A stretch of 64,000 bases of DNA from Pyrinomonadaceae bacterium (GCA_031396065.1 JANNJZ010000418.1:9030-73029), one strand, 5' to 3'. Counted from the first letter of the stretch, positions 2,864 through 18,343 are shown. Translations and numbers: made by a program. Notes: a model not told the origin generated them from the letters alone.

Positions 2864-3075
2864 TCGACGGAATCTCCTTATTACAACGAATACGCAATCC
2901 GTCTTGTATCAAAGTTACAACTAAGAACACAGCATCAACTCCTCGTGCCCATGCCTACTTACTTCGTGCACGATGGTTAACGCTGCGACTCTCGTCCCGG
3001 GGGAACACTTTTTTACACGCTTCCGCGTCGAATATGGGGGAGGCTTCTTATCAAAGCAGGAGTCGGCCCTTCTAG

Positions 3076-4110
3076 TTGGAGGAATTTTTCGCGGCCGATA
3101 CTCGCAGATCGAGACTCTATGACCCGCAAATTGTAGCACGGCTCAGTCGGTTCGAGCCTGCTCGGGCAATAGGTGCGCGATCCTTTGGGAGCTCGGAATA
3201 CGTTGATGAGTTCGGTGATAAAACGATGACTCAGATTTCGCCTCGCATGGTTGAGAATTATCTGGTGGAATTGCTGCAAACCAAAACGCGGATTGACCGA
3301 CCCTATTCGCCGGTAACCGTGCGTCGGCATTACAACATGCTTAATCAACTCTTCAACATGGCAATTCGCGAGCGCATCACTAACGATAATCCGTGTCGTT
3401 CGGTGAGTCGCACCGTGCTGAAGAATTTACCCACATGGCAAAACCGTGATCGATGGCTGAACAAATACTCACCGGACGAAGAAGGACGGCTTTTTGTCGC
3501 GTTTGGAGAGCACGGCCAGCATGTAGCGGCCATTTGCCGCATCGTTTTGAACACTGGCATCAGGCCACCCAAGGAGGTATTGGCAATAAGGAAGGATCAC
3601 GTCAATCTTTCGGACGACCAGCGCTACTGCAAGGTCGAAAGAACGGACGTGTTGATTCCGCCTCGGGCGATCCTCGTGGCCAAGGGGAAGAATGGTCGGC
3701 CGCGAGCTTTGCCGCTCAATCGCACAGTACAAAGGGTCGTTGCGGTTCTCGCCACGGATTCGACGACGGAGGGTTGGTTATTTATTTGCGAACCGTGACG
3801 ATGAACCAATCAAAGCAATAAAGACCGGATTCACCAAGGCTTGTACTCTAGAGCCGGAATCGAAGACCTGCGGCCTTACGACCTCCGTCACACATTCGCC
3901 ACCCGGCTCTTGGAGCGAGGCGTGCACTCCTTCATCATTTCGGCACTGTTGGGGCATTCGACTCCGACGGCTGGATTTGGTGTCGGATCGCGAATTACTT
4001 CGGGCTACGCGCACGCTACCTGGGGTGCAATGCCGTGTCGAGGCCGTCCCGGGTCACCTCGTATTGCGCGTAATCGTTTTAAGACCGTAAACATTGACGA
4101 AGGCGGTTAG
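3076..4110 (+). pseudogene. Tyrosine recombinase (phage-type integrase), disrupted by two frameshifts and N-terminally short
   Basis: Frame 1 (3076-3798) reads ...VRRHYNMLNQLFNMAIRERITNDNPC...ICRIVLNTGIRPPKEVLAIRKDHVN... and ends GWLFICEP*. Frame 2 continues FANRDDEPIKAIKTGFTKAC. Frame 1 resumes near 3845 with SRAGIEDLRPYDLRHTFATRLLERGVHSFIISALLGHS...GYAH (the catalytic HxxR, H and Y region). The only start available is a TTG. Confidence 0.75.
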
Positions 4111-4187
4111 AGAAGTCACATTCACATGCATGAGTTGGATAAAGCACCCGCGCAGTCTGCCAAAAGTCTGCCAAAACTTTCGCCGCA
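4031..4187. repeat. Direct repeat copy 1 (integrase 3' end plus downstream); pairs with 15361-15506
   Basis: tgccgtgtcgaggccgtccc(-)gggtcacctcg ... gagaagtcac ... ataaagc...gtctgccaaaactttc(g)ccgca aligns with 15361-15506 in the same orientation, with substitutions and small indels. The first 14 nt are the reverse complement of a tRNA-Val anticodon stem-loop. Confidence 0.8.
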
Positions 4188-4426: not shown

Positions 4427-4879
4427 TCAGCTCGCGGTGACGCCTTCTGACAATCGGGCGTATTCAGCGTAGAGATCCTTGAGGTTGTTGTTCAACTCTG
4501 TAAAGATTTCAGGTCTGATGTTTTCAGGTGGAGTTTGATTCAGAACTTTCAGCAAAGCGGAAATTACTCGCGAAACCTCACCGGACATGCCAACTGACTT
4601 CGGGCCATTGTCGCGAATCAAACTCGCCAGCGGATCCAAAACCGCCAGGCGTCTGATGGCCTGACTATCAGGTTGTTCTAGTAGTGCTGCTGCGATTAGA
4701 TCTTCGCTCCACCCTTGGCTCGTCGCTGCGTTGACAATGTAGTTCATGAGGTCGGTATCAGGGACACAATCAAGAATTCTCTTGTCGAGGCGCGTCTTCA
4801 GCATCCTTTCAAGGCTTAGCTTATCAAACGCCTGCAGCATTGCTTCGGTAAGTTTGTTGGAATCGCTTGCGGCAGTCAT
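4427..4879 (-). CDS. Adaptor-domain (EAD-like) protein, 150 aa; last gene of the NTPase/protease operon
   Basis: The N-terminal ~80 aa (LKTRLDKRILD...IVNAATSQGWSEDLIAAALLEQPDS) is paralogous to the N-termini of the 353-aa and 371-aa ORFs. Its start overlaps the upstream stop (ATGA at 4876-4879). Confidence 0.8.
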   Translation of the reverse strand: MTAASDSNKLTEAMLQAFDKLSLERMLKTRLDKRILDCVPDTDLMNYIVNAATSQGWSEDLIAAALLEQPDSQAIRRLAVLDPLASLIRDNGPKSVGMSGEVSRVISALLKVLNQTPPENIRPEIFTELNNNLKDLYAEYARLSEGVTAS

Positions 4880-7230
4880 GGCATAACTCCAGTAGCTTGC
4901 AGGTTCAGGTCTTTCCTCAGCTCGATCAATGTCTCCGGTTGTGCATTAAGCTCTTGCACGGCTAGCGCAAGCGCCAGGTAGGTTTTACCAGTGATGCCCG
5001 CTGCTATGTTCTCCGTGTGATAAACAGAAAAGTGACTTTGCATTGTTACGAGGGCAGCAATTAGTGCCTCTCGTTCAGTAACCAATAAAGGACTATTAGC
5101 GGTTCGCTCTGCTCGTTGCCGCAAAACGTTTAAGGCGCTCATGGGTTGTTTCAGTACAATTAGGTCATTGGCACGCAGCCTGGCGTGAGTCTCCCAGTCT
5201 TCCAGTTCCGCCTCTTGCCAAACTGACTCGTCAACCTCCAAGCCAAGTTTGGCAGCCAGATATGCCTTGGCCTTCGGCGGCAACTCTTCTATGGCGCTCC
5301 CGAGATTTTGTTGCACAGCGTCCAGCCAGCGGCTTTCGAGAGTGGCGCGCTCGACTCCCAGCGAAAGGCGGTGGTAGATCTCCTCAGCGCGCGAGACGCC
5401 GTCTTCGAACGTCTGGTAATACTCCACAGCATTGTGATGAATCTGTTCCACCTTCTCGCGCTTGTCGTTGCGCAACGGCTCCAGCATCACTTTGCGCAAA
5501 TCTGTGCGGTGAATCAAAGCGTTGTCACCGGCTTGTGATACCAGTGCCACTTCCTTGCCCAGTTCCTCAAAGAGCTCTCTAGCTCGGTTGATGTCCGGAA
5601 CTTCGACCTCGCAGGGGCCTGCCAGTACCTTAAGGATTAACTCCGGAGTAATACGACGCAGTACCAAACCCGGATGGGCCAACTTAGCCACATCCGGTTC
5701 ATGTATGTGCTCAAGAATTCTTGTGAACAACTGGACCTGAATGGCGCCGTCGTCGAGTTTCTTCAAAAGTCGATCTTTGGTCTTTAGGTTCTTAATTCCT
5801 TTGGCTCCCGCTCCCTCGCGCCGCAAAAGTTCGACAGCCAACTTTAGCGTAAGCGGACTACCCCCCACCTGGGTTGCAACCAGCTTGGCGAGCTCGGGAT
5901 CCGTTATGCCATGCGACTCGAGAAAACCCTGAGCAATCTCCGCGTCAAACACCGAGATCTGAAGTCCTTCGGTTTTAAACCTTTTCGACTCTATTGGCGC
6001 CCGTCCGGACAATACCGCTCGCAGTGTCGGTATGCGCTTCTGCAACGACTCGAGAAACTCGAAGAGTTCATCAACGAAAGCACTACTCCGGTACTGCACT
6101 TCCTCAAACGTATCGAGAATAAGCAAGAGTGGTTTGTCCCCTAAGACCAGCCCCTTCGCCTCCTCCGCGAATTCGTCCAGAAACAAGTCGCGTTTATCGA
6201 CGCGTGCAGGTGCGTCCACGGTGCCGCCAGGTTGTCTTTTGCGCGCAGTCCGATTTTCGATTCGCTGGTTCCAGGAATCGCGTAAGTGTTTCAACGACTT
6301 AGCCGAGCTGGGAAACTGCACCTCCATTTGCCGGAGCGCTTCAATCAACAACGTAATTGGCTCTTCCGCAATCAGCGAAGGACGATCAAAATCCAGGTAT
6401 GCAAAGGGAAACCGGTTTGGGTCAGCGTCCTGATCCTGACTCGCCGGCTCGGCGAGATTCCCGGCTGGCAACATCAACATCACGTGATCAAGAATGAACT
6501 TAGCTAACAAAGTGGACTTTCCCACTCCGCCGGGCCCATGTAGCACCAGCGGGGGTTTGTCATTCCAACTGAAAATCTGGCGCAGGCCGCGGGTGACGAA
6601 ACTCGAAACGCTGGTTGCCTCCATCGCGCCAACGTATTCCGACAATTTATTGAGTTCCGTCGTGCGTCCTCTGAAATGATCGCCCACCAGGAAGCGAAAA
6701 GACGACAGCAAATTCTCGACTTCGATTCGCTGCAACACGAACTGCGGTTCCGGCACCCCAGTGATAATGCCATTCAACCACTCCGACACCTGCAGGGTTC
6801 GCAGCAGATCCTGATGGCTCTGTTTTTCTAACGGCTCCGCAGTTTGAAAGATGTACCCCTCAAGAGTCTTTTGTAAGGGATCCTGAGGACGATCGGAAAT
6901 ACTCAGCAAGACCTTCCTGATGTTATCAGCGCCCTCCAAACGCTCCAGTGCCTCTCGGCGCGCATCACTGCGAAGCATCCAGCGCGGACGCTGATTCTCA
7001 TCAAGAATTAACTGGCTGTCTGAATAAAGACTTTCGAGCGCAGTTTCCGGGCTAGCCTCCGCCCCATCGAATGGTTGGATTTTCTGCATCTCAAAGGAGG
7101 AGACAACTGAGGCGGCTTTAAGATAACTCCAGCGCACGTCAGACTCGTTGAGTTCAACACCCAGCAAGTCCTTCAGTTTCGAGGCAAGCAAATCGTTCGA
7201 ATAGCCTGAGGGAAAATCCGGATCCGACAT
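4876..7230 (-). CDS. STAND-type P-loop NTPase with a helical-repeat C-terminal half
   Basis: Walker A is PPLVLHGPGGVGKSTLLAKF (DNA ~6509-6541) and Walker B is KPLLLILDTFEEV. The C-terminus is ~350 aa and helical (TPR-like by eye). The product is 784 aa. Confidence 0.85.
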   Translation of the reverse strand: MSDPDFPSGYSNDLLASKLKDLLGVELNESDVRWSYLKAASVVSSFEMQKIQPFDGAEASPETALESLYSDSQLILDENQRPRWMLRSDARREALERLEGADNIRKVLLSISDRPQDPLQKTLEGYIFQTAEPLEKQSHQDLLRTLQVSEWLNGIITGVPEPQFVLQRIEVENLLSSFRFLVGDHFRGRTTELNKLSEYVGAMEATSVSSFVTRGLRQIFSWNDKPPLVLHGPGGVGKSTLLAKFILDHVMLMLPAGNLAEPASQDQDADPNRFPFAYLDFDRPSLIAEEPITLLIEALRQMEVQFPSSAKSLKHLRDSWNQRIENRTARKRQPGGTVDAPARVDKRDLFLDEFAEEAKGLVLGDKPLLLILDTFEEVQYRSSAFVDELFEFLESLQKRIPTLRAVLSGRAPIESKRFKTEGLQISVFDAEIAQGFLESHGITDPELAKLVATQVGGSPLTLKLAVELLRREGAGAKGIKNLKTKDRLLKKLDDGAIQVQLFTRILEHIHEPDVAKLAHPGLVLRRITPELILKVLAGPCEVEVPDINRARELFEELGKEVALVSQAGDNALIHRTDLRKVMLEPLRNDKREKVEQIHHNAVEYYQTFEDGVSRAEEIYHRLSLGVERATLESRWLDAVQQNLGSAIEELPPKAKAYLAAKLGLEVDESVWQEAELEDWETHARLRANDLIVLKQPMSALNVLRQRAERTANSPLLVTEREALIAALVTMQSHFSVYHTENIAAGITGKTYLALALAVQELNAQPETLIELRKDLNLQATGVMP

Positions 7231-7239
7231 AAGACTCTC

Positions 7240-8301
7240 CTAAACAAAAAGCAGTTTCGCTGTTTCGTTCACGGCTTTGCTGACCAGTCGTAGTCGCTCG
7301 ACTGTAATCTCGGGCTTGCCGGCGATCGCGCCATCAACCTCGGCCAGGATTATGTCAACTTTACCGGTCAAGTCTGTGGCGCTGTAATTTCGTTTGTGAT
7401 CTTTATTCAACTGCTCAAAGAAATCGATCAACTCATCGCGGCCGATTGGCTTGATCTCCTCTCGACTCACGTAGTCGCTGATCTGAAATGGCAACGTTTC
7501 CTGGTAGTTAAGCAGCACCACGCGACACTGCGGAACGTTGGTCTCAGCTTGAACTGCCAATTCGTCAATCCAATCTCGCGTTTCCGGGAGGAGAGTCTTT
7601 TCGCGAAAGCCGTCAAAGACGAACCAATAGGTTGTATCTCCGGGATTGACCACGCGAGCCAGTATCCAACTAACCAGACGCTGCACCCATCTCGCTTTCT
7701 GTTCATCCTGCTGCTGAGGAATCTTACTGGTATCCATTCCCATTTGCAGTCCGATCATTTCAGTAAGGTTGGGAGCTTCGAAAACAAACTTATCAAGGTT
7801 CATGTAGATAGTTTTGTTTCTCGGCGTCTTCTCGCTGAGAAAACTTATCAACTCGTTGGTGTAAGACTTGCCGCTAACCCGCTGGCCGGTAACCACGAGG
7901 ACGCGCGGGCCGTCCGGTGACCGCAGGTCTTTCAAGGCCTGACGCAAGTCTTTGCGATCGATGAAATATCTTCGCGCTCGCAACGTGTGCGCCATGACCA
8001 AGTCAACCAGAGTAGGTGGTCCTGGCGCCGGATCGAAATCCGGATGTTTTGCTACGAATGCCTTCAGGTTAACCCCGCTTGGATTCCGATCGATCGCATG
8101 GTAGACAAGATACGCAATCCATCCTTCCTCGATGCCTCGTTGCACGACGATTTCCACCACATCTGGATAGCCAATACCCTGTGGATTGATGATGTTTGCC
8201 AGTTTCTTATCGAGCTGGTTCAGCAGCAGACTAGTAAGAGTAGGAAGCGAGTAGTCATTGCTCAGCGCAAACAGGAAATCATTTCGTTGCTGCAAATCCA
8301 T
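7240..8301 (-). CDS. Adaptor (EAD-like) domain fused to a small P-loop NTPase
   Basis: The N-terminus reads LLLNQLDKKLANI...VVQRGIEEGWIAYLVYHAIDRNPSGVNLKAF. It is followed by Walker A VLVVTGQRVSGKSYT and a Walker B-like TYWFVFDGF. Confidence 0.8.
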   Translation of the reverse strand: MDLQQRNDFLFALSNDYSLPTLTSLLLNQLDKKLANIINPQGIGYPDVVEIVVQRGIEEGWIAYLVYHAIDRNPSGVNLKAFVAKHPDFDPAPGPPTLVDLVMAHTLRARRYFIDRKDLRQALKDLRSPDGPRVLVVTGQRVSGKSYTNELISFLSEKTPRNKTIYMNLDKFVFEAPNLTEMIGLQMGMDTSKIPQQQDEQKARWVQRLVSWILARVVNPGDTTYWFVFDGFREKTLLPETRDWIDELAVQAETNVPQCRVVLLNYQETLPFQISDYVSREEIKPIGRDELIDFFEQLNKDHKRNYSATDLTGKVDIILAEVDGAIAGKPEITVERLRLVSKAVNETAKLLFV

Positions 8302-8454
8302 ATTGACCTCCCGGGGGGCGGGTTAAGAATTATCAACCAATCAGTTTCTCGTCATTAGTCCAGGAACATGAACCGAATATGGCGGCCCGGCAGCCCCTTC
8401 AGCTCGCCGCGCTGGGTACTCGATTCGCGTTACGTCGTTCATGGCTCGCGCCAA

Positions 8455-9570
8455 CTAGTCGTCCGGATCAGCAAGTTTTGCCGCCACGTTTCGCTCCTGG
8501 AACAGCTTCATGATGGCGGTCATCGGAACGCCTTCGTTGTAGGTTGGCTTGTGGGCCGGATCAAAGTCGGGATCGCCGCTGTGATGCAGCGCAGCCAGTT
8601 CCCATTTAAAGGTAAAGCAAGGTGAACCCGAGGAACCTGACTCGGTATTAGTTTGGTAGCGCAAACGCGTTCCGTGGGTATTGGTGCTCATTACCCCATC
8701 AGTGTCCACCGCCAGTTTCATCGGCTGACCACGCGGGTGTTGCAAGATGCTCATGCCTGAACCCTCTGCCGGAATAAAGGGCATCTGCGGCAACGGAATA
8801 AAGCCACGCTTTTCGCCCGCCAAACTGTCCTTGTCCCCAACTGTGTCCTTTCCCGCCGGCGCCGCGAGCCGGATCAAAGCGTAATCCAAACGATCTGCGG
8901 GTGCTTCTTGATCCAACGGATAATTCTCGCTGGCATCAATCAGCCAATCAGTCGCCAGTGAATAAGTGACACCGTCGTTAAGAACGGCACCGCCACTGGT
9001 TCGTTTGTAATCGAACCGGCAGAGCACATTTTCCCGTTTAGCAAGATCGCCATCCGGCATCGTTTTAATTACGGGTTCCATGACGTGATAGTTAGTCATT
9101 ACCACGCTCGGTCCGCCAAACAGAAAGCCCGTACCGGTGATGCTCCTACCACGCTCGGTGCCATACTCGATACGGCATATTTGCGCTTCGAGTTTGCCCA
9201 ATTCCGTGCGCCAAACATTGACGTCCAACATTGGATTCTGCGGCGTGATCATCCGCTCTAGCTCCTGACGATCAACCGTCTTGTCGATGGAGCTAAGCCC
9301 AAACTGCTGAGAGAAAGCCAGGAGGTTGGCGTTACCAGGATTCACTTCGCGCGCTTTTAACACGAGCGCATCCCACCAACCCTCCATATTGGCTCTCTGG
9401 ATGACCGCCGAAACCGTCTCTTGGTAGGTTGCACCCATCGGAGCGAGGTTAAACACCTGCTTGTCAAGCCGATGCAGCAGCAATAATCCGAACGTTCCGG
9501 GAGCAAAAGCTGCGGTCAGAACGTCTGTCAATTTTCCGATTTGTGGCCCGTTGAGCTGCTTTGTCGCCAT
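8455..9570 (-). CDS. Adaptor (EAD-like) domain fused to a trypsin-like serine protease
   Basis: The N-terminus reads LLLHRLDKQVFNL...VIQRANMEGWWDALVLKAREVNPGNANLLAF. The protease triad context is VVMTNYHVM (His), DYALIRLA (Asp) and ESGSSGSPCF (Ser). Confidence 0.85.
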   Translation of the reverse strand: MATKQLNGPQIGKLTDVLTAAFAPGTFGLLLLHRLDKQVFNLAPMGATYQETVSAVIQRANMEGWWDALVLKAREVNPGNANLLAFSQQFGLSSIDKTVDRQELERMITPQNPMLDVNVWRTELGKLEAQICRIEYGTERGRSITGTGFLFGGPSVVMTNYHVMEPVIKTMPDGDLAKRENVLCRFDYKRTSGGAVLNDGVTYSLATDWLIDASENYPLDQEAPADRLDYALIRLAAPAGKDTVGDKDSLAGEKRGFIPLPQMPFIPAEGSGMSILQHPRGQPMKLAVDTDGVMSTNTHGTRLRYQTNTESGSSGSPCFTFKWELAALHHSGDPDFDPAHKPTYNEGVPMTAIMKLFQERNVAAKLADPDD

Positions 9571-9572
9571 GG

Positions 9573-10250
9573 TTACCCCTGTGGTTTCTTATATTGCGTC
9601 CCGATGAACTTTTTATCAGTCTCCGACAGATGGCGGTTCCAGCCAACTTCCATCTTTCCGTCGGTCAACTCCTTGGGTATGGGGTACAGCATGATCGATT
9701 CTTTGTCGAATTCTGAAAACTGCGACTGATCCAGTTCATACTTCCGAAAAAGATTTTGATCCACGCGCGCTTTGTTCCAGCCACGGTCGGCGTAGTACCG
9801 ATACACGGCATCCTTGTTCCAGGGAATGTTGCCGGCGGGGTTCTGATGTTCATGGATGCAACCTATCGCGTGACCAAACTCATGGACGATAACGCGAGCA
9901 AATTCCTCTTCATCCGAATCCTCGGTTAACCAACCATAGTTCATCGTCGCACTGCCAGGCGGAAAAAAGCCGAGGTTGAGAGCGTCGGTGCCCACGGCGG
10001 ACCAGGAAGTGTTATCCATCTTGAACGCCACGCGAACCTCAGCACCGGGATCGTCCACAAAATCAAAGAAAATGTTTGCGTGGGGTTCCCACATCCGAGC
10101 ATATTCTTTCACCTTCTCCTGCAGGAATGAGTCGCCCCCGAGAAAGTGTACCCGCAGGCGTTTTCCGTTACTCCACATATTAGTCATTGCCAGCTCTTCT
10201 CCAGAATCTGGCAGTATCACATCCATGCAAACTCTTGGTTCGTCGCTCAT
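9573..10250 (-). CDS. Astacin-like (M12A-type) zinc metalloprotease, no signal peptide seen
   Basis: VIVHEFGHAIGCIHEHQ (the HExxHxxGxxHE signature, DNA ~9845-9892) plus a Met-turn-like SIMLYP. It lies 2 bp upstream of the next gene. Confidence 0.8.
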   Translation of the reverse strand: MSDEPRVCMDVILPDSGEELAMTNMWSNGKRLRVHFLGGDSFLQEKVKEYARMWEPHANIFFDFVDDPGAEVRVAFKMDNTSWSAVGTDALNLGFFPPGSATMNYGWLTEDSDEEEFARVIVHEFGHAIGCIHEHQNPAGNIPWNKDAVYRYYADRGWNKARVDQNLFRKYELDQSQFSEFDKESIMLYPIPKELTDGKMEVGWNRHLSETDKKFIGTQYKKPQG

Positions 10251-10275
10251 TGGTTAGTCTCCTTCAGTTTGTCAA

Positions 10276-11211
10276 TTAAGATTCGTTCTTACTGTGAGGC
10301 CGATGAAGGCGCTCGACCGGCAACTTGTCCGCGTCGATCAAGTCAGTTGAGTCAGTCGTGGCCGGTCGGGTTTTTAGTTCACTCAGATTTCGCGGAGCCG
10401 GTATGTCAGCCATCGATTCGTCGTATAGGTCAAACCACGGCAGTCCGAATTCGGCATACGTTGCTGCGCTAACCGGAGTAGTCGGTGGCTCAAGATCACA
10501 GATAGCGCGATACTGTTCACTGTTGAGCAGGTAAACAGAAACGGTCTCATGATTTTGCTGGTCCCAGACAACGATACCGTAAGGGTCGCTGTATATCTTT
10601 TGCTTAATTCGACCTCCGGCGTCTAAGCCCATTTCAACCCAGGTATCAGACCCGTACTGAATTTCCGCTGGGGAAGCTGGTGGAGGTTCGTCCGGAAACT
10701 TCCCGCGTTTGGGCTCATAGACCACAAGCTGGAGGCCACCCGTTTCCTCCCTCCCGGTAATTTGACCTTCAACAGTTTTTAGCTCCCCGAGTGGCGTCGC
10801 AATGAATTGTCTAACGAAGTTCGCTCCGGCATTGATTCCGTCGAGCCATGGTTGATCTGGGCACACCAAATAGTCTTGCGGATCAGAGTTCAACCCTTCT
10901 TCCCAAACCGTTCCGGAAACAGCATTCACGCCGCCGACCGCTACTTTCACCGCATTGGGCTTCCAATCCTCTCCTCCAAAGCCGAGCCATATTGCCTCTC
11001 GTTGGTAAACGGGAAGAAAGAACGCTGCGTTGTGACGCCATTTCGCGGGAACTCTCTCAGCAAAATCGTCCACGCGGTGAACGTTGAAAGGCCCAAGCGA
11101 CGGCGGCAGCGGATAGTGCTGTCCGTCTTCGGGAATTCGCAGAGTTCGCTGAAGCGAAACCGAAAACCGGTCTCCAACGTAAATGCGCGTTCCATCGGTT
11201 CGGACCAACAT
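10276..11211 (-). CDS. Conserved protein of unknown function (311 aa)
   Basis: Long ORF in the operon. I moved the start from the TTG at 11229 to the ATG at 11211, which has GGAG 7 nt upstream. The sequence (SLQRTLRIPEDGQHYPLPPSLGPF...VKVAVGGVNAVSG...PWLDGI...RQFIATPLG) contains no motif I can assign. Confidence 0.7.
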   Translation of the reverse strand: MLVRTDGTRIYVGDRFSVSLQRTLRIPEDGQHYPLPPSLGPFNVHRVDDFAERVPAKWRHNAAFFLPVYQREAIWLGFGGEDWKPNAVKVAVGGVNAVSGTVWEEGLNSDPQDYLVCPDQPWLDGINAGANFVRQFIATPLGELKTVEGQITGREETGGLQLVVYEPKRGKFPDEPPPASPAEIQYGSDTWVEMGLDAGGRIKQKIYSDPYGIVVWDQQNHETVSVYLLNSEQYRAICDLEPPTTPVSAATYAEFGLPWFDLYDESMADIPAPRNLSELKTRPATTDSTDLIDADKLPVERLHRPHSKNES

Positions 11212-11624
11212 TGTTACTCCAGAAAGCAAGCGCCTAGAAACGCTAAATCAAGCCGCAGAGATTCGGGTCGAGTGAAGAGCACCTGGAGCCCTCGTACTAT
11301 CTGTTATGTATGACCTTATATCCGGAAGCGTTTCACGGCTGGAAGTTCCATGAAGAAGCGCTACCGCGCTTGTCAACGGAAACAGCGGTCCTTGGCAGTT
11401 TTCCAGCAAGTGCGAGGCGCAGGCTCGTGAAGAATCCTTAGAGAGACGGTGCGGACGATAAGTCGAATGACAACCAAAAGTCAACAGCTTCTCGTTACAA
11501 GGTGCAGAGCCTTGCGAGAGTTGGGGATTCAAATGACCCCGGCCTATTCGGCGCAGGCACGAGGTTCAATTTTTACCGTCGATCAGGGCGAGGAGTCAGG
11601 TGAGTTGTCAAACTCAAAAGCTAA

Positions 11625-14396
11625 TCAACTCTCACCAAGTAATTCTGCGACTGAGACGCGCCGAAAGCCGACCGGCGTTTCCTCGCCTGGCGAGGCCAAT
11701 CGCATCCCGCCCACCAACTCGTCCACTTCTTGAGTCGCGAGGGTGTTCCAGTCAAACAGAAATATTTTTTCAAAGTAGGCAGCAACTTCAGGATCCCGAA
11801 CCAACAAACTTGCATCGCGATTGAACAAACTACCCTGGTTAGTAAGATTGTGACTTCCAAGCAGCACTTCCTTTCCATCCACGATGATGCCCTTGGTGTG
11901 ACACCTCATTTGAACTCGAATGGCATCGGTGTCGAATCCGAAGTCTTTTAGCCGCTCAAGCAGCTTTTGCTGCGAAGGCCCATTGCTGGCGCCAAACTCT
12001 CTTGCATCCCGGAAGATAACCCGCACATCAACTCCAGACTGTTGCTTATCGCGGAGCAGGCCGAAGAACTCGACGAACTCATCGTTGTTGTTCTCTTCGT
12101 CAAGCAAGTTGAACGATTGGTTCTCAACGTAGATTTTCCGCGTACCTTTCCTCATTATCTTAAGCGCGTGGTCAATGAAAAGACGGCGACCATGCGAGTC
12201 ACGATCAGGCGTCAGCAACGGTTGAATCTCAAACTCTCGATCGCGAATCAAGGGATCGAAGTACTGTGCATGAGCTGCCTTCTCAAGCCCTTCCATGAAA
12301 GCGGCTTCCGGGACAAAGACATCAGGAAACACTGCTTCCAGGCCCTCTTCAAGAGGTACGCGCTCAGCTTCGCGAAAATCAAATTCAATGAACTTCTGGA
12401 ACATCGTGGCCAGCTTTCGGTTCGCAATGACCGCATGCCATTCGCGATTATGTTTTTTGAGGGGTCCGATCTGCGTTGAGTGGGTGCCAGCCGGATCGAT
12501 GTTCGCCTGGTTGGAATCTTTCCAATTTCCGCTGGACATCCACAACTCTTCACCGTCTCGCGAGGCGACCTTGATATGGTATGCAGATGGAATCAGTTTC
12601 CCTTTCCCAACCGAGGCCCAGGCGTGTTTGAACTTAGTTCCGATGCGGTGCTTCATGTCGTCAACGGCTTCCTGGGTTCCCTTTTTCTGGGTCACCATCC
12701 GCAGTGTCTTGTTGTTCCCCTGCATCGCTTGCGCGATAGCATCACTGATGTGATTCGGATCCCACTCGTACATCGTTGCAGTCAAATGCTCGTTAACGCG
12801 ACTAAGGAAGTCTCTTAGATTCGGAAACCCCGAGTCGGGACTAACGTGAAAGACTACTCTCATTTGCTCTTTAACGGGCTCGAGGAACACGTTGGTTGGT
12901 TCCCGATATTTGCCGGGACGCGCCGGCGCCTCAAGCACCGAGAGATCGACGCCCAGGGATTCGAGTTGGTCACGTAATGCCGACGTGCGCACATCAACTC
13001 CGACTCCCAGAATCTGAGGCGGAATCGCCGATTTACCTTCCGCAGAAAGCTCAGCAGTAGTTAACTTCTTTCGAGTCTCGATTACGACCACTCGCTCATC
13101 AGTGATCCAGCCTCGCTTAAATCGGTAACCAAGCCGGATCTCGATCACATTAGGATCGTTACCATAAGCTTCACGAGCTGCCTGAAGCGCCCTTTCGTGG
13201 GCATCTCCGCTCGTAACGGTTCCGCTTGGGCCCACCGTCGTAGTCGGCAAGGAAATGGGAGTTGCGGCGCCAACTTTCACCGTCACCTCAATCGGAATAT
13301 TCAATTGAAAAGTGTAGGAACTTGCTGTCGCGGGTAGCAGTGTTGGCGGCGAGGTCGGCAAGCTCGTACCAGGTTGATTTCCGGGGCCTACACTTACTTC
13401 GCCCTGTTGCACGCGTCGCAGTAGTTCGCGCACTTTTGGTGCTGGGACCGCAAAGTTAGCTTGCATAAACAGCCCGGAGAAGTGAAGGCCTACAGCTTTT
13501 CCCGATCCCAGATCGATAGCTGGAGAACCGGAATTGCCTCCTAGCGTCGAGCAATCATGCTGCAATTCGTCTTCGGAAACAGAGATGATCTGGCCTGGAG
13601 CGAGGCGTTTCTTGTCGTAAACATCGCCAAAGATTCTCAGCACCAGATCTTGATCGGGGACACGCGAGTCGCGAGCGGGGTAACCGATAGTGGCAACAAG
13701 CTCGTCACCACTGACGGCGTCAGCCAATTCAATTGGAAGCGGCAACGGCCTTCCGGTGACAGGTTTGCTCAATCGCAGAAAGGCTACGTCGGGCTCACTC
13801 GATGATGCGATAAAAAGTATGGAGTTGACCGCGTATTCAAGACTGTCCGCGCGTTGATCCTCCTCCAGAAAATCGACACGCGACGTCATCGCGCCATTCA
13901 CTCCCGCACGAAACGTAAATCCGTTCACGCCGCGCCGCCCGAACTCCTGCGCGACATGGCGGTTTGTGACGATGATGTCGTCAGCGACGAGCCAACCGGT
14001 TCCAAGCCAGGGGAAGTCCGGATGATTGGTTACTTCGACGCGGCCAATTGCTGGAATGACTCGATCCAAAATGGGCTTTGCCGTTTGAATTCGCGCTCTC
14101 CAGACTTCACTATCCGGGCCGAGAAACTCAGTGGTGGCCTGGTTGTCCCGAATGGTTAAGACTGGTCGTGCCAGAGGACGAACTATAGTTTCTAAAGTGA
14201 ACCGTTCTGTCAGTTCCGCTACACCTGGTTCACTCACAGAGGGCAATGCCGCAGCGACGCTAATCTCTTCGGCCAACGCGTCGACCGACTCCTGAGCGGG
14301 CAATTTTACCTTTTTCTGCAGCTCCTCATAGAGTGCGAGGTCCTGTTGTGCAAATTGCCGCATTACCTCATCAAGTTGTTGTTGATTGACTGGCAT
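11625..14396 (-). CDS. Trypsin-like serine protease fused to a two-HKD phospholipase-D-superfamily domain (923 aa)
   Basis: The protease shows IIVTNRHVAQEF (His), PDVAFLRL (Asp) and STLGGNSGSPAID (Ser, DNA ~13519-13550). HKD-1 is YHIKVASRD...SSGNW (DNA 12555-12578) and HKD-2 is CHTKGIIVDGKEVLLGSHNLT (DNA 11877-11900). Confidence 0.85.
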   Translation of the reverse strand: MPVNQQQLDEVMRQFAQQDLALYEELQKKVKLPAQESVDALAEEISVAAALPSVSEPGVAELTERFTLETIVRPLARPVLTIRDNQATTEFLGPDSEVWRARIQTAKPILDRVIPAIGRVEVTNHPDFPWLGTGWLVADDIIVTNRHVAQEFGRRGVNGFTFRAGVNGAMTSRVDFLEEDQRADSLEYAVNSILFIASSSEPDVAFLRLSKPVTGRPLPLPIELADAVSGDELVATIGYPARDSRVPDQDLVLRIFGDVYDKKRLAPGQIISVSEDELQHDCSTLGGNSGSPAIDLGSGKAVGLHFSGLFMQANFAVPAPKVRELLRRVQQGEVSVGPGNQPGTSLPTSPPTLLPATASSYTFQLNIPIEVTVKVGAATPISLPTTTVGPSGTVTSGDAHERALQAAREAYGNDPNVIEIRLGYRFKRGWITDERVVVIETRKKLTTAELSAEGKSAIPPQILGVGVDVRTSALRDQLESLGVDLSVLEAPARPGKYREPTNVFLEPVKEQMRVVFHVSPDSGFPNLRDFLSRVNEHLTATMYEWDPNHISDAIAQAMQGNNKTLRMVTQKKGTQEAVDDMKHRIGTKFKHAWASVGKGKLIPSAYHIKVASRDGEELWMSSGNWKDSNQANIDPAGTHSTQIGPLKKHNREWHAVIANRKLATMFQKFIEFDFREAERVPLEEGLEAVFPDVFVPEAAFMEGLEKAAHAQYFDPLIRDREFEIQPLLTPDRDSHGRRLFIDHALKIMRKGTRKIYVENQSFNLLDEENNNDEFVEFFGLLRDKQQSGVDVRVIFRDAREFGASNGPSQQKLLERLKDFGFDTDAIRVQMRCHTKGIIVDGKEVLLGSHNLTNQGSLFNRDASLLVRDPEVAAYFEKIFLFDWNTLATQEVDELVGGMRLASPGEETPVGFRRVSVAELLGES

Positions 14397-15087
14397 AATT
14401 TATCTCCTGAGTTGAGAGGGATTCAGCAAGGAATCTGATCCCGACGTAATCACTGGTCGGATTGCTTCAAGACGCTTTTCTTACTAACTGGCCGACGAAA
14501 ACGGCCGGGGTTCTCGGATCCACGAGTTTTCTCCTCGCTTGAACGGTCGCCGGCGCTTCTAGAACGAATCTTTGTCGCTGGGCTTCTGGAACGAGCCTTT
14601 AATGAACAGGTCTTTAATGTCTTATGACGAACCGCGGGTTTTCGTTTCAGTGTCTGGCTGCAAGGCAAGGACTATGCTGCCTCCACGCCAAGGTCCGGGC
14701 GGCAGATATCATCGATTGTTAAGTAATTCGAAGGAATTACAAACAAGCCTGCGAGTTTGGTAGGTAGCGACGGCAGTATTATTACGACCGTCGACTTGGA
14801 TCGAGGGACCCTTTTGAGATCTTCCGACTACGTGGCCAACAAATTCCGAGTTTGTTCTGCCACGAGAACCAACCATGAGATGGTCAGCGCGATCGCAAGG
14901 CACTCCCCCTCTCGGTAAGGTCTAACCGCTGCTTCTGAACGTAGGTACGAGAAGCCTCGCTTTCGTTGCTCCGGAATATCGTTAGCCAAGGCGAAAAGAG
15001 TGTGAGAAATGAGGGCGGAAAACGGGCAGTGGCTAAGTGGAGCGTTCTGGAGCAATGGAAAAGCGAGGTTATACAGCGTAACTTGTT

Positions 15088-15255
15088 GAGAATTCTCATC
15101 AGCCAACCAGGTTGCGAGAGCGGGTGATGCGAAAGTTCAAGTCAGCGGGACACGCGCAACGTTTCCCCTCGGCCGTCGGAGTCATTACCCCGCACTTCCG
15201 AGTGGGACGTCATCGGCACAGAGCTAATGGATATAGAGAGGTGATGACGACCTGA
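15088..15255 (+). mobile_element. C-terminal remnant of an IS6-family DDE transposase
   Basis: ENSHQPTRLRERVMRKFKSAGHAQRFPSAVGVITPHFRVGRHRHRANGYRE matches the NRAENSHQPTRRRERxMxRFKSxxxAQRFLSxH...F...RH tail of one IS6 subgroup. An in-frame stop lies immediately upstream and no N-terminal part is present. Confidence 0.6.
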
Positions 15256-15326
15256 TTTTGAGAGGCTGCCAAACTGTGTCATGAACGATGAAGGGGGACA
15301 AGAGTAACGAAATAACCCAATAAAAA

Positions 15327-15374
15327 TGGTAGGCGCGTGGGGACTTGAACCCCAGACCTCTGCCGTGTCGAGGC
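15327..15374 (-). pseudogene. tRNA-Val 3' fragment (anticodon loop to CCA)
   Basis: The reverse complement is GCCTCGACACGGCAGAGGTCTGGGGTTCAAGTCCCCACGCGCCTACCA. This covers the anticodon loop TCGACAC (GAC), the T arm TGGGG/TTCAAGT/CCCCA, the acceptor 3' strand and CCA. The sequence upstream of it cannot form a D arm or an acceptor 5' strand. Confidence 0.75.
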
Positions 15375-15506
15375 CGTCCCTGGGTCACCTCGGACAGCGC
15401 GCAATCTTTGCTCACGCGTTGAATATTAACCAAAGAGGCTTGAGAAGTCACTCAACACTGCACGGATTGAATAAAGCGTAAGCGTAGTCTGCCAAAACTT
15501 TCCGCA
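15361..15506. repeat. Direct repeat copy 2 (pairs with 4031-4187)
   Basis: See 4031-4187. Here the repeat abuts the tRNA-Val 3' fragment instead of an integrase body. Confidence 0.8.
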
Positions 15507-15530
15507 TGGGGAGACGGAGCTATTAGCCTT

Positions 15531-15854
15531 CTACGCAGGCATGCCGTGTTCGACCGTTTCAGCTCGTCGCACTTTGATCTTCACTTCGACTCGTGACCCG
15601 AGCCGGTTGATGATCGACATCAGGCGATCGACGGTGAACCGCCCAAGATCGGCGTTGCGGATGCGCGAGAAGTCCGCTGCCGCAATCCCAGTGCGGCCCT
15701 GCGCGCCGCGAACGCTAAGCCCGTCACGGTCGAGCGCTTTGATGATCTCGGCGGCCAGAATTGCCTTGAACTGATCGGCATCGGCATTCTTGTGTCCCAG
15801 GTCGCGAAAAACATTTCCGCTTCCCTTCACTACGTCCAGCTTTTCGCTTTTCAT
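15531..15854 (-). CDS. XRE-family HTH antitoxin (HigA-like)
   Basis: GSGNVFRDLG...QFKAILAAEIIKALDRDGLSVRGAQGRTGIAAADFSRIRNADLGRFTVDRLMSIINRLG fits the antitoxin that pairs with Gp49/HigB-type toxins. It overlaps the upstream toxin gene by 4 bp. Confidence 0.8.
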   Translation of the reverse strand: MKSEKLDVVKGSGNVFRDLGHKNADADQFKAILAAEIIKALDRDGLSVRGAQGRTGIAAADFSRIRNADLGRFTVDRLMSIINRLGSRVEVKIKVRRAETVEHGMPA

Positions 15855-16198
15855 CGCAACATCTCCTTCAGCCTTTTCATACGGTCCTTGACCAGATCGC
15901 TTTCAGCTTTGGGTGTCTTGATGCCCCGCGTAGATTTCTTCTGAAAGACATGGACAACCCAAATGTCTTCACCGAGCTGCACCGCATAGACCACGCGGAA
16001 CGCGTCACCGCGAAACGGTAAAGCAATCTCGAACACGCCCGAGCCTAAACCCCGCATCGGCTTCGCAATGTCGGCCTTACCGCCCTCTGCGGCAATCGTC
16101 AAGGCGGTAAGACAAGTTGACCGCACCCCATCTGGGAAAGTCTCGAATTCCCTGAGTGCCGCTTTGATCCACGAAACGGGCCGCGTGCGTCTGATCAT
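15851..16198 (-). CDS. Gp49/HigB-like (RelE/ParE superfamily) toxin
   Basis: WIKAALREFETFPDGVR...KPMRGLGSGVFEIALPFRGDAFRVVYAVQLGEDIWVVHVFQKKSTRGIKTPKAE is the typical DUF891/Gp49 pattern. The toxin-first gene order also fits. Confidence 0.8.
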   Translation of the reverse strand: MIRRTRPVSWIKAALREFETFPDGVRSTCLTALTIAAEGGKADIAKPMRGLGSGVFEIALPFRGDAFRVVYAVQLGEDIWVVHVFQKKSTRGIKTPKAESDLVKDRMKRLKEMLR

Positions 16199-16249
16199 TT
16201 GCCTCCCCGTTCATCGCTCCGCGATCTCGTCTCGGATCTTGCCCTGCCA

Positions 16250-16269
16250 TGTTGTCACATATGACAACA
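16250..16269. promoter_or_regulatory. Perfect 20-bp palindrome, probable TA operator
   Basis: TGTTGTCACATATGACAACA lies ~52 bp upstream of the toxin start codon (16198, minus strand). Confidence 0.5.
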
Positions 16270-16370
16270 CACGTCAATTGTGAGGGAAGTAGTCTTTTCT
16301 GCTAATTTGCGCTCGCGAGTCCGTCCCTCTCGGAGCGCGTCTAAGAGAGCTCCTTATAGAAGAGCGTAGG

Positions 16371-16976
16371 CTAAACAATGCTTGCCGCGGCCTCGTTGAC
16401 AGTCGAAAGATAGAGTCTTCGACGAGCACGGTCCAGGCGTTGATAAAGTGAACTGCGGTTAACTCGCAGTTGGCGGGCAGTTTCGGAATGGCTGCCCGTC
16501 TTTCCCCGCAACATGTCATAAAGATCCTGCATGGCATGGTCAAGAAAATCATCCAGGGAATCACCCTCGGTGTAGGCGCCGAATGGCCAGCGACCATTTG
16601 TGGAGCACAAGACAACGTGAGGATGGTTGTCGAGGGCGCGGCGAACCGCGTCTGCGTTAATGAGTGAGTCTCCCAAGGTGCCGACCACCAGTTTCTCTAC
16701 CACATGGCGAAGCTGACGAACATTGCCGGGCCAGTGGCAATCAAAGAGAGCATCAATGGCGTCATCTTCGATTCTCCGCGACACGGTCGATTTGATCTTC
16801 TGCTCTGTCTGATGTTGAAAATATTGCAGGAGCAATGGAATGTCTGAAATTCGATCTCGCAGAGGCGGTGTGTTGATGGCCAGCACCGCAATGCGATAAA
16901 AGAGATCTTCCCGGAATCGACTGAGCCGGATACCGAACCGGATTGCTGCAACGACTACCCGGTTACTTGGTCCCAC
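16371..16976 (-). pseudogene. 5'-truncated sigma54-dependent activator (C-terminal part of the AAA+ domain plus the Fis-type HTH only)
   Basis: FREDLFYRIAVLAINTPPLRDRISDIPLLLQYF, WPGNVRQLRHVVEKL and a C-terminal HTH (SHSETARQLRVNRSSLYQRL). The Walker A/B and GAFTGA regions are missing. Confidence 0.7.
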
Positions 16977-16991
16977 GTTTGGACCACGGTC

Positions 16992-17528
16992 TTGCAGGGG
17001 GAAGAAAGAATGGCGCGCAGCGCCTCTGGGCCAGCCTCGGTAACAAGAGTGCGCGGATTAACACTCGGCCTGTTTGGGTCATTTGGATTCATAACAATAT
17101 CCGCGGCCGGTAACAAAGTTGTCATTACTGAAGGCGCGCTAAAGGCAGAAACGTTCGTAAGGTTTGTACCCAAGGCTCGCGTAATCGCAACTACTGGGGT
17201 CAGCTGCTCACATTCAGAGATAATTGAAGCCGCAAGACCATACAACGCCTTAATAGCTTTCGACGCCGATCACAGAACCAATCCTGCCGTGTGTCGACAA
17301 CTCGCTAGACTCATCTTCCACCGTGCCGAAGACTCCCTCAAACATGGCCTTTCGACAACAACAAAGATTGTATTTTGGAAAGGGCCAAAAGGCATCGACG
17401 AAGCCGCACAGAAAAATATCCAATTCACCTCACTTACAATTCCCGAGTGGTACGCAACCCTTAAAGATCATTCGCTCGAAGAAGTACAGCGATTCTGGAA
17501 AGATATCGGCTTTCACCTCTTAACGTGA
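16992..17528 (+). CDS. Toprim (DUF3854-like) domain protein, probably an N-terminally truncated primase-like fragment
   Basis: KVVITEGALKAE (Toprim Glu), ALIAFDADHRTNPAV (DxD) and IVFWKGPKGIDEA match the DUF3854/Toprim pattern of conjugative-element primases. Confidence 0.55.
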   Translation: MQGEERMARSASGPASVTRVRGLTLGLFGSFGFITISAAGNKVVITEGALKAETFVRFVPKARVIATTGVSCSHSEIIEAARPYNALIAFDADHRTNPAVCRQLARLIFHRAEDSLKHGLSTTTKIVFWKGPKGIDEAAQKNIQFTSLTIPEWYATLKDHSLEEVQRFWKDIGFHLLT

Positions 17529-17667
17529 TGCAAATAAGAGGGCGTAATCTGCACCACTGCAAGCACGATTGCAGGTTAATCAGGCCGAACGTTTCATTGT
17601 TCACGGTGACTATGAGGTACCCGAAGCTGCCGTCGGATCATTTCGGCGTCGCGATTTCCGACCTGAG

Positions 17668-17850
17668 GATGGGGCTAAGATGGTGGCGGGACGTGTTGAT
17701 ACGAAGCCAGCCGAAGCGATCCCTTGACGACCGCGAGGCGCGTAAATACTGGCTCATATCGTTTCGTAAAACTAGGTAATACCGGTGGCATGGGACTTAA
17801 AATCCGTTGTCCGAAAGGGCGTGCGGGTTCGACTCCCGCCCTCGGCACCA
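17668..17850 (+). repeat. Direct repeat A: ~180-nt element ending in a tRNA-like anticodon arm, long variable arm, T arm, acceptor strand and CCA
   Basis: GGGACTTAAAATCCGTTGTCCGAAAGGGCGTGCGGGTTCGACTCCCGCCCTCGGCACCA resembles the 3' two-thirds of a type II tRNA-Leu(UAA). The upstream 120 nt (GGGGCTAAGATGGTGGCGGGACGTGTTGATACGAAGCC...) are not tRNA-like. No matching acceptor 5' strand or D arm lies at the correct distance. Confidence 0.6.
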
Positions 17851-18343
17851 TTACTAATCCCACTGTTAACGCGACTTCCACCAACTTAGCTGGCAGGATG
17901 TTCTCAGCGCCCAAGGACTGCAAATGGGCCGAGATGGTGACACTTCTAACCCTACTTTTTCTTGAACCTTACCCACCTGCAGGTAAATGGAAAGCTTGAT
18001 CCAGAAAACCCTTCGTTAAGTAATTTGACGAGACTCATACAAATGGAATATTGTGCGCAGAGCCGATCCGCATCATTGGCTGGCTCACGACCCGAAGTCC
18101 TCGGAACCCTTGAAACCAGCCGCGCACACCCATCACGATGTCGGGTCCTAGGAATCGGCGGAATACTGTAACAACGCTGGATCTTGTGGATCGCGGAACG
18201 TCAGACTGGATCCTTTTCGTTCCAAGACCCGGTCGCAGTCTGGCTCGAACACATGGTGACCGAACCCGACTGGCCTTTGCGTCCATCGTGCGCCCTAACG
18301 TGCGGTTAGCCCGCCTTACGACTCAGCAGGAAATGCCGACGCA

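Follow-up and report, generated by a model that had tools for sequence, protein, structure and literature searches.

Two bacterial systems in which proteases are wired to an NTPase have been described in some detail. In the Lysobacter enzymogenes operon characterised by Wein et al. (PMC10312443), a gasdermin is encoded together with a first trypsin, a second trypsin that carries an adaptor, and an NLR-like STAND ATPase. The protease needs its CARD-like adaptor, which is indispensable. At its N-terminus, the NLR-like protein carries a helical domain of about 150 amino acids (aa) that lacks annotation, and at its C-terminus a CARD-like domain whose deletion is toxic. In relatives, the gasdermin is swapped for a phospholipase or an endonuclease, the effectors often being fused to trypsin. 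The second described system is LypABC from Caulobacter crescentus (PMC13236601), the paper on which also reports that DefenseFinder names LypABC-like systems CARD-NLR. Here, we describe an operon of seven genes at positions 4427-14396 of a stretch of 64,000 nucleotides (the window) from a Pyrinomonadaceae bacterium (GCA_031396065.1 JANNJZ010000418.1:9030-73029). This operon is probably an islet-borne, cytoplasmic system for regulated cell death (i.e., of the abortive-infection type), belonging to the CARD-NLR kind but with an expanded protease cascade.

LypA is an adaptor-trypsin-ATPase protein, LypB comprises an N-terminal domain (1-193), an AAA+ domain (193-392) and TPR repeats (393-771), and LypC is a trypsin-endonuclease; the adaptor of LypA binds to LypB's N-terminal domain (PMC13236601). 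LypABC is needed for the release of gene transfer agents (GTAs), for which its nuclease activity is dispensable (PMC13236601). The adaptor that concerns us here, EAD1, was defined by Kaur et al. 2020 (PMC7159879), together with the principle of coupling by effector-associated domains (EADs). The 'System 3' of the same study, a computational prediction, has trypsin peptidases and a NucA nuclease, sometimes with EAD1 and STAND proteins. In general terms only, Kaur et al. 2021 liken 9 of the 12 EADs in structure to the Death-like superfamily, and some EADs are also linked to Death-like domains by profile-profile comparison.

An initial annotation of the window, made from the sequence, had placed seven open reading frames (ORFs) on one strand. 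All are present at the proposed positions and sizes, and Pfam agrees with all of the domain calls, including those of three EAD1 adaptors. In the order of transcription, the genes are:

Gene 1: 11625-14396, minus strand, 923 aa, trypsin-like serine protease joined to a phospholipase D (PLD) with two HKD motifs
Gene 2 (F311): 10276-11211, minus strand, 311 aa from ATG, member of a conserved family that lacks annotation
Gene 3: 9573-10250, minus strand, 225 aa, metzincin-type zinc metalloprotease
Gene 4: 8455-9570, minus strand, 371 aa, EAD1 adaptor and trypsin-like protease
Gene 5: 7240-8301, minus strand, 353 aa, EAD1 adaptor and small P-loop NTPase
Gene 6: 4876-7230, minus strand, 784 aa, NLR-like STAND ATPase
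Gene 7: 4427-4879, minus strand, 150 aa, EAD1-only protein with a helical tail

Genes 6 and 7 share a 4-bp ATGA overlap at 4876-4879, where the start of gene 7 lies over the stop codon of the STAND gene. The next gaps, from the junction of genes 6 and 5 upstream, are 9, 153, 2 and 25 bp, as first annotated. The gap of 395 bp that had been given between F311 and gene 1 applies only if F311 starts at the TTG at 11229 (317 aa); all homologues favour, by alignment, the ATG at 11211 (311 aa), with P0021 identical at 311 aa, and from this start the gap is 413 bp. In a scan for promoters and terminators, the counts did not exceed those expected from shuffled sequence, and they give no firm indication of transcription units. 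Signal peptides and segments resembling a transmembrane helix are absent from all seven products, and the system is read as cytoplasmic. The catalytic motifs (HExxHxxGxxH, the serine protease triad, and Walker A and B of both NTPases) are intact in the window proteins, and invariant or conservatively substituted in the orthologues.

The adaptor EAD1 (PF19955) is recognised by Pfam in the 150-aa protein (7.7e-10), the 371-aa protein (3e-12) and the 353-aa protein (5.5e-4); the last score is under the gathering threshold, yet the domain aligns with the other two copies. In the 371-aa protein, EAD1 occupies residues 1-95 and is followed by Trypsin_2 (1.6e-11), with a conserved His/Asp/Ser triad; in tblastn searches this protein matches proteases of three-gene operons on plasmids of Paracoccus, Caulobacter and Polaromonas. 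The 353-aa protein belongs to a small family (20 matching clusters) and has an intact, conserved Walker A (GxxxxGK[ST]) and Walker B (hhhhD). The 784-aa protein consists of a helical N-terminus (about 1-215) that has no Pfam match, a P-loop NOD, and a C-terminal helical/TPR-like region; its Walker A (GPGGVGKST, 232-240) and Walker B (LLILDTFEE, 369-373) are both conserved. Pfam matches of both NTPases are weak and of the P-loop/NB-ARC/NACHT type, and by sequence the 784-aa protein has no match in the PDB.

Evidence for how these proteins might work together comes from homologues of the STAND ATPase, of which 276 were detectable, many with TPR, effector or EAD1 fusions. Many of those at 40-51% identity are longer than the window protein and have C-terminal fusions. 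In P0157 (934 aa), a STAND with 51% identity to the 784-aa protein, colinear with it over residues 4-740, is followed by an EAD1 at 780-846 and a tail aligning with the 150-aa protein (1e-4). P0164 and P0168 are STAND-EAD1-trypsin proteins, the C-terminus of P0164 aligning with the whole 371-aa protein (34% identity, 2e-51). In P0166, which is a STAND-EAD1-P-loop protein, the second P-loop can be aligned (6e-14) to the NTPase part of the 353-aa protein. Thus, for each of the three EAD1 proteins of the operon there are cis-fusions to this STAND family elsewhere, strongly supporting the proposed wiring of the EAD1 proteins to the STAND ATPase, and the overlapping pair of 784-aa and 150-aa genes is a split version of the P0157 type. 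Homologues of the 150-aa protein (147-151 aa) occur in seven further loci (L001, L005, L095-L097, L101, L102). Other STAND homologues carry FGE-sulfatase, patatin, TIR or SIR2 domains, which are the usual effector repertoire of conflict systems. The coupling of a STAND protein to proteases and effectors via shared adaptors, which the initial annotation had envisaged, is supported by these fusions and by the conservation of the operon.

The same annotation was aware of no experimentally characterised, named defence system of such a composition. That nothing comparable exists cannot be maintained: CARD-NLR (PMC10312443) and LypABC (PMC13236601) have the same parts, and a trypsin-nuclease-EAD1-STAND system had already been predicted (Kaur et al. 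2020, PMC7159879). As in the CARD-NLR variants from Lysobacter, Pedobacter and Azospirillum, a trypsin-like protease bears a helical adaptor of about 90-100 aa at its N-terminus, and there are a STAND protein with an unannotated N-terminal helical domain (150-200 aa), Walker A/B and TPR-like repeats, several proteases per operon, and an interchangeable effector, often fused to a second trypsin. There are also clear differences. In the window, the adaptor-trypsin and the ATPase are encoded by separate genes, both products having an EAD1 of their own, and Walker A/B are retained in the small ATPase; the C-terminal adaptor of the NLR is a separate 150-aa protein (fused in P0157); as effector there is a fusion of trypsin and two-HKD PLD; and there are two extra constant genes, F311 and the metalloprotease, beyond what is described for CARD-NLR. 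Compared by described domain layout, LypA resembles the 371-aa and 353-aa proteins taken together, LypB the 784-aa protein, the domain boundaries of the two nearly coinciding, and LypC the 923-aa protein, with PLD for NucA. However, the LypA ATPase lacks Walker motifs, and LypABC is a three-gene system that lies outside any island and serves GTA release; neither F311 nor a metalloprotease is reported for it. System 3 has in common with the window a trypsin-nuclease fusion, a trypsin paralogue with EAD1, further EAD1 proteins, a STAND protein, and a predicted proteolytic cascade that deploys the nuclease; it differs in having NucA instead of PLD and in being mostly alphaproteobacterial, and neither the F311 family nor an MMP-like (matrix metalloproteinase-like) peptidase is mentioned. 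What marks an EAD-coupled system in the sense of Kaur et al. 2020 is found here, i.e., the same EAD on three proteins of one operon and on homologous STAND proteins too. The genes do not fit the family-specific STAND models of Avs/AVAST and bNACHT: only Avs5 gave a match (E=0.011 in PADLOC, 0.086 in NCBIfam), both times on the P-loop of the 353-aa protein, and the 784-aa protein had no match in PADLOC. What is new, relative to CARD-NLR and EAD-coupled systems, is the presence of adaptors in trans, the adaptor-only protein, the PLD effector, and the constant insert of F311 and metalloprotease.

The genes present and their domains, the intactness of the catalytic motifs, the co-conservation, the links by fusion, the variability of the slot and the structure of the islet form the observed frame, within which we infer the trigger, every biochemical step and the role of F311. 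The 784-aa STAND protein would sense a trigger via its C-terminal helical repeats and oligomerise upon binding ATP. The EAD1 domains would serve as Death-domain-like adaptors, by which the EAD1-trypsin and the EAD1-NTPase (together a split LypA-type protein) would be recruited to the STAND protein, probably at its N-terminal helical domain. The 150-aa EAD1-only protein would be the detached C-terminal adaptor of the STAND protein, most likely holding the system off, in the manner of a CARD-only decoy. Once recruited, the trypsin would become active and carry out limited proteolysis of the metalloprotease, F311 and the trypsin-PLD protein, thereby releasing death effectors: PLD (as nuclease or phospholipase) in the window, gasdermin or others in relatives. 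F311 itself may be another of these effectors, as the constant, protease-gated component.

The candidate effector, gene 1, comprises a trypsin module (about 69-338), a linker, and a two-HKD PLD module (about 520-923), with Pfam matches to Trypsin_2 (1.7e-16) and twice to PLDc_2 (3.2e-21), each PLDc_2 with an HxKxxxxD motif. In PADLOC and NCBIfam, the PLD matches DrmC and DpdK, which are PLDs of the nuclease type. With 44% identity (2e-56), the trypsin module resembles the trypsin of a Trypsin+Endonuclease_NS protein whose gene is present near the operon of L095, and it is 35-47% identical to trypsins encoded beside F311 genes elsewhere. By these similarities it belongs to an F311-associated trypsin family, and gene 1 as a whole may be described as a LypC-type trypsin-nuclease in which PLD replaces NucA. 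The gene is a variable member of the operon that lies outside the core. It is missing from the closest relatives, L101 and L102 (84-87% identity), and the slot upstream of the six-gene core is filled in L094 by an SH3-gasdermin fusion (PADLOC bGSDM, 1.2e-40), in L005 and L096 by a coiled-coil/hydrophobic protein of 375-404 aa with no assigned function, and in L101 by an unrelated 379-aa protein; in L097 it is empty. A hypervariable position beside a conserved core, once filled by a gasdermin, is the signature of an exchangeable death effector.

The core itself is well conserved. In L001, from a Pyrinomonadaceae metagenome-assembled genome (MAG), the same six downstream genes occur in the same order, from F311 through metalloprotease, EAD1-trypsin, EAD1-NTPase and STAND to the EAD1-only gene, with 76-85% identity. 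The order from F311 to STAND (in part with the EAD1-only gene) recurs with tight junctions in L001, L005, L012, L094-L097, L101 and L102, which answers the call of the initial annotation for evidence of co-conservation; over these loci the identity of the EAD1-NTPase to the window protein falls from about 89% to 34%. In L094, too, the first five genes are the same, with a STAND homologue that is a fusion. All examined loci of the EAD1-NTPase family whose contig reaches upstream (L001, L005, L012, L095-L097, L101, L102) have F311 and metalloprotease there. In L095, the six-gene core is directly followed, at 14059-19160, by a 418-aa EAD1 protein (5.5e-20, plus a helical region without assignment) and an nSTAND1-WD40 protein of 1,266 aa, which make up another EAD1-coupled STAND system in tandem with the first.

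Comparison of these loci with more distant ones revealed that the operon is a mosaic of two modules, a structure which had been missed at first, as had the size of the F311 family and the variable status of the trypsin-PLD gene. Module A is made up of F311 and metalloprotease, and module B of EAD1-trypsin, EAD1-NTPase, STAND and EAD1-only genes. Module B occurs alone in L092 (a MAG, as a three-gene cassette) and on plasmids of Paracoccus (L099), Caulobacter rhizosphaerae (L098) and Polaromonas (pPNAP01, L104). The Polaromonas form is condensed, one operon encoding a trypsin+ATPase protease of 601 aa, an ATPase of 984 aa and an Endonuclease_NS protein; the C-terminal ATPase of this protease aligns with the 353-aa NTPase (2e-5), and the 784-aa STAND protein is 30% identical to the 984-aa ATPase (5e-43). 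The cassette of L092 (5811-14167) lies between two BPD_transp_2 permease genes (297 and 380 aa, both on the minus strand) of an ABC-transporter cluster and looks like an insertion into an ABC-transporter operon. On the Nostoc sp. ATCC 53789 plasmid pNsp_j (L100, 1486-9510), an EAD1-trypsin homologue with 38.7% identity is part of a locus of the MoxR-vWA ternary type that encodes three EAD1 proteins; here, the adaptor-protease plugs into a different core system, as described by Kaur et al.

Module A is constant in the clade of the window and is also widespread on its own. Of 30 non-redundant metagenomic loci in which F311 is flanked on either side by 1.2 kb of sequence or more, 20 have a co-directional peptidase within 3 kb of F311, MMP-like in 17 and/or trypsin in 7. 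Variants of the arrangement include the clade of L006, where F311, trypsin and PLD are three separate genes, Gloeothece, where PixA, trypsin and F311 are found together, L024, where a caspase-hydrolase protein adjoins F311, and L095, where a second F311 paralogue is divergently paired with the trypsin-Endonuclease_NS gene.

The mosaic raises the question of whether the operon is one system at all. Two or three independent, uncoupled systems could lie side by side, one with F311 and metalloprotease (perhaps with trypsin-PLD), the other being the EAD1/STAND module. The occurrence of module B without F311 in L092, L098, L099 and L104 would fit this, as would F311 with metalloprotease, or with trypsin (and PLD), without EAD1/STAND genes in dozens of loci, cyanobacteria included; the gaps of 153 and 413 bp could hold promoters. 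Yet at least 10 loci, whose identities span 34-92%, have retained the order from F311 to STAND, the metalloprotease and EAD1-trypsin genes lying 2-40 bp apart, and the narrow EAD1-NTPase family has F311 and metalloprotease upstream in every examined locus that reaches that far. Furthermore, in the more distant L083, a STAND gene (37% identity), trypsin, F311 and metalloprotease are found together again. Uncoupled neighbours are, on balance, unlikely, although they are the strongest competitor of a single cell-death system.

F311 is the new element of the operon and its most novel part. The description of the 311-aa product as unknown was correct in that the protein has no annotation (there is no match in Pfam, NCBIfam or PADLOC, and none by sequence in the PDB), but it belongs to a very large conserved family, with more than 7,233 matches among 90%-identity clusters and, at 50% identity, 4,705 clusters with E<=1e-3 and 1,202 with E<=1e-30. 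Members from Acidobacteria, Cyanobacteria and Thermodesulfobacteriota are 50-60% identical, and an alignment of 85 sequences has 50 invariant positions. The protein is predicted to be cytoplasmic and rich in beta-structure. An AlphaFold2 model built from the 85 sequences (predicted local distance difference test score, pLDDT, 80.6; predicted template modelling score, pTM, 0.82) had no significant fold match in the PDB by Foldseek (best E 0.055, template modelling (TM) score <=0.25); matches to beta-sandwiches of the TEAD/FetP type were discarded as noise (E>0.05, TM<0.25), as were the meaningless matches of a first model from 20 sequences, with pLDDT 54. In BFVD, the model matches uncharacterised giant-virus proteins (E=5e-19, TMq 0.70), from Harvfovirus, Hyperionvirus (a Ubl-domain protein), Sylvanvirus, Pithovirus and Marseillevirus, and more weakly proteins from nudi-, asco- and iridoviruses. 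Because of these fold matches, the family appears to extend to viruses of eukaryotes. Longer members are fused to TPR repeats, kinases, trypsin, FGE-sulfatase, ubiquitin/UBA or SH3 domains, and the ubiquitin/UBA and kinase fusions hint at eukaryotic members.

In the model of F311, a poorly conserved, charged segment (about 265-298) loops out, after which a final conserved strand (299-302) rejoins the fold. The peptidases encoded beside F311 span three classes, metallo-, serine (trypsin) and cysteine (caspase). Because of this loop-out geometry and the recurrence of neighbours from three protease classes, F311 could be a protease-gated component. The situation proposed here would be similar to that in gasdermin systems (PMC10312443) and in protease-activated pro-nucleases (Tuck et al. 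2025, PMC12799240), where a cytoplasmic effector is inactive until cleaved by a neighbouring protease, and where the associated proteases are of several catalytic classes, as around F311. F311 has no similarity to gasdermins (no bGSDM/Gasdermin match in PADLOC or Pfam, no shared fold by Foldseek in the PDB), nor, in sequence or fold, to MBL (metallo-beta-lactamase) nucleases. It stands alongside the gasdermin in L094, rather than substituting for it, and this co-occurrence, together with its extreme conservation, argues against a simple gasdermin-like role. The wider proposal, that F311 is an ancient, hitherto unrecognised protease-gated component that acts as executioner, or else as a required cofactor or substrate, in pathways of regulated cell death and immunity common to bacteria and giant viruses of eukaryotes, is speculative, and we regard it as more likely wrong than right by some distance. 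F311 might even represent the class of downstream lytic factor that the LypABC study did not find.

Several observations weigh against reading the operon as a CARD-NLR-type cell-death system. The window STAND protein ends without an EAD1 in cis, its adaptor being encoded by the overlapping 150-aa gene. The window adaptor is Pfam EAD1, and is likened to the crystallised CARD-like domains without matching them: by sequence, neither the 371-aa protein, nor the EAD1 profile, nor the proteases from Paracoccus, Caulobacter and Polaromonas match the CARD-like structures 8SRZ/8SS1. Pfam EAD1 was found in the Paracoccus protease and not in the N-termini of the Polaromonas, Caulobacter and Hymenobacter proteins. 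With respect to F311, 10 of the 30 sampled loci have no protease nearby, and the family is, with 50-60% identity across phyla, far more conserved than typical defence effectors. Gene 1 may be a separate transcription unit, given the 413-bp gap and a promoter-like match within it. In PADLOC-DB 2.0.0 (2023), the operon genes had matches at the level of domains and none at the level of a system; the candidates offered by PADLOC and NCBIfam were only a DrmC/DpdK-type PLD, a protease hidden Markov model named 'nacht', and weak Avs5/PDC-S01 P-loop matches, and were rejected. Finally, LypABC shows that such systems can lyse cells for non-defence ends (PMC13236601).

The genomic setting bears on this last point. 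The operon lies within an islet of 11.3 kb, flanked by imperfect direct repeats of about 150 bp, the limits of which were correctly recognised at the outset as an integrase pseudogene (with split frames), direct repeats and a tRNA fragment:

Tyrosine-integrase pseudogene: 3076-4107, plus strand, SAM-like and C-terminal catalytic domains in different frames
Left direct repeat: 4031-4181, overlaps the 3' end of the integrase pseudogene, about 11,330 bp from the right repeat
Degenerate tRNA-Val(GAC): 15327-15404, minus strand, found by ARAGORN at a relaxed threshold only
Right direct repeat: 15361-15502, overlaps the degenerate tRNA-Val(GAC)

On their separate frames, the two parts of the integrase match Phage_int_SAM_5 (3.1e-6) and Phage_integrase (1.7e-8). 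The 3' half of the degenerate tRNA-Val is nearly identical to that of a genuine tRNA-Val at 50057-50132. As for the IS6 remnant that had also been proposed as a boundary, the ORFs at 14828-15106, 16992-17528 and 17525-17779 had no transposase match, in a search that was not aimed at IS6 and left out intergenic DNA.

Just past the right repeat, at 15531-16198 on the minus strand, is a HigBA-like toxin-antitoxin pair, in which the gene for a Gp49/HigB-like toxin (15851-16198) overlaps that for an HTH_37 antitoxin (15531-15854). It is followed by a truncated sigma-54 activator (16371-16976, minus strand; AAA lid and helix-turn-helix only), a fragment that suggests past rearrangement or insertion in the region. 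An intact sigma-54 enhancer-binding protein (18344-19738, plus strand) is encoded upstream of a complete operon for an extracellular contractile injection system (eCIS), which begins 6 kb from the operon on the opposite strand (20346-47038, plus strand) and includes genes for tail sheath, gp19-type tube, baseplate, Pvc16_N, AAA ATPase, eCIS_core protein, GPD hub and DUF6519/beta-helix proteins. At the other end, an FG-GAP/beta-propeller repeat protein of at least 969 aa (2-2908, minus strand) runs off the start of the window. A sub-threshold tRNA-Sec-like Rfam match at 17780-17847 (plus strand; 22.8 bits, E=0.32) is probably due to chance or another tRNA remnant. In L101 (13767-22361), the operon adjoins Tc-toxin genes (SpvB/TcdB/RHS, ABC_toxin_N) and not an eCIS; thus, in both genomes the neighbours of the operon are toxin-delivery loci.

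The operon could be imagined to bring about regulated lysis for a purpose other than antiviral defence, e.g. release of eCIS particles, or kin or developmental cell death. Particles of eCIS are generally freed by lysis, the eCIS operon of the window is complete, and a sigma-54 activator lies between it and the islet; in addition, the CARD-NLR-like LypABC provides the precedent of GTA release with a dispensable nuclease activity (PMC13236601). The operon is, however, in its own integrase- and tRNA-bounded islet, on the strand opposite to the eCIS and with the toxin-antitoxin pair in between, and there are no eCIS genes within 10 kb of it in L095-L097, L101 and L102. Such a purpose is thus a distinctly less probable one than abortive infection, and ranks below a pair of uncoupled systems as well.

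The third gene had been called astacin-like. That it encodes a zinc protease with HExxHxxGxxH is supported by its motif (HEFGHAIGCIH), HEFGHxxGCIHEH being invariant among 7 orthologues; the label is less apt. The Pfam matches to Astacin and Peptidase_M10 are weak, and the NCBIfam match to AbsR1 (2.6e-28) covers profile positions 51-253 with 99 bits, against a cut-off of 650. The protein is better described as MMP-like subfamily 3 (the SCO6992/AbsR1 family), with the catalytic domain only. The idea that the proteases and the PLD are ordinary metabolic or regulatory enzymes, comparable with the SCO6992/AbsR1 'beta-glucuronidase' that stimulates antibiotic production (SCO6992 has no protease activity in vitro and affects secondary metabolism; PMC9705864), can be set aside as highly improbable, and so can that identity for gene 3, as the partial AbsR1 match spans the metalloprotease domain only, far below the cut-off, and the zinc-binding motif is invariant, while the neighbours are EAD1 adaptors, STAND, gasdermin and nucleases, the products have no export signals, and the islet is mobile.

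CARD-NLR systems are bacterial counterparts of inflammasomes, and only few have been studied. In the clade described here, one position of the operon holds a gasdermin, a trypsin-PLD protein or proteins without assignment, i.e., a hot-swappable effector slot, and within a single STAND family EAD1 is used in cis (in the fusions) or in trans (in three proteins, one of which is adaptor-only). This makes the clade a natural system in which to test how Death-like adaptors recruit, activate or inhibit. A function assigned to F311 would carry over to thousands of proteins, and might bring to light a new class of effector or a new layer of protease regulation. If F311 is indeed protease-gated, the operon of the window would provide the context in which to dissect how a cascade of three proteases under NLR control activates it.

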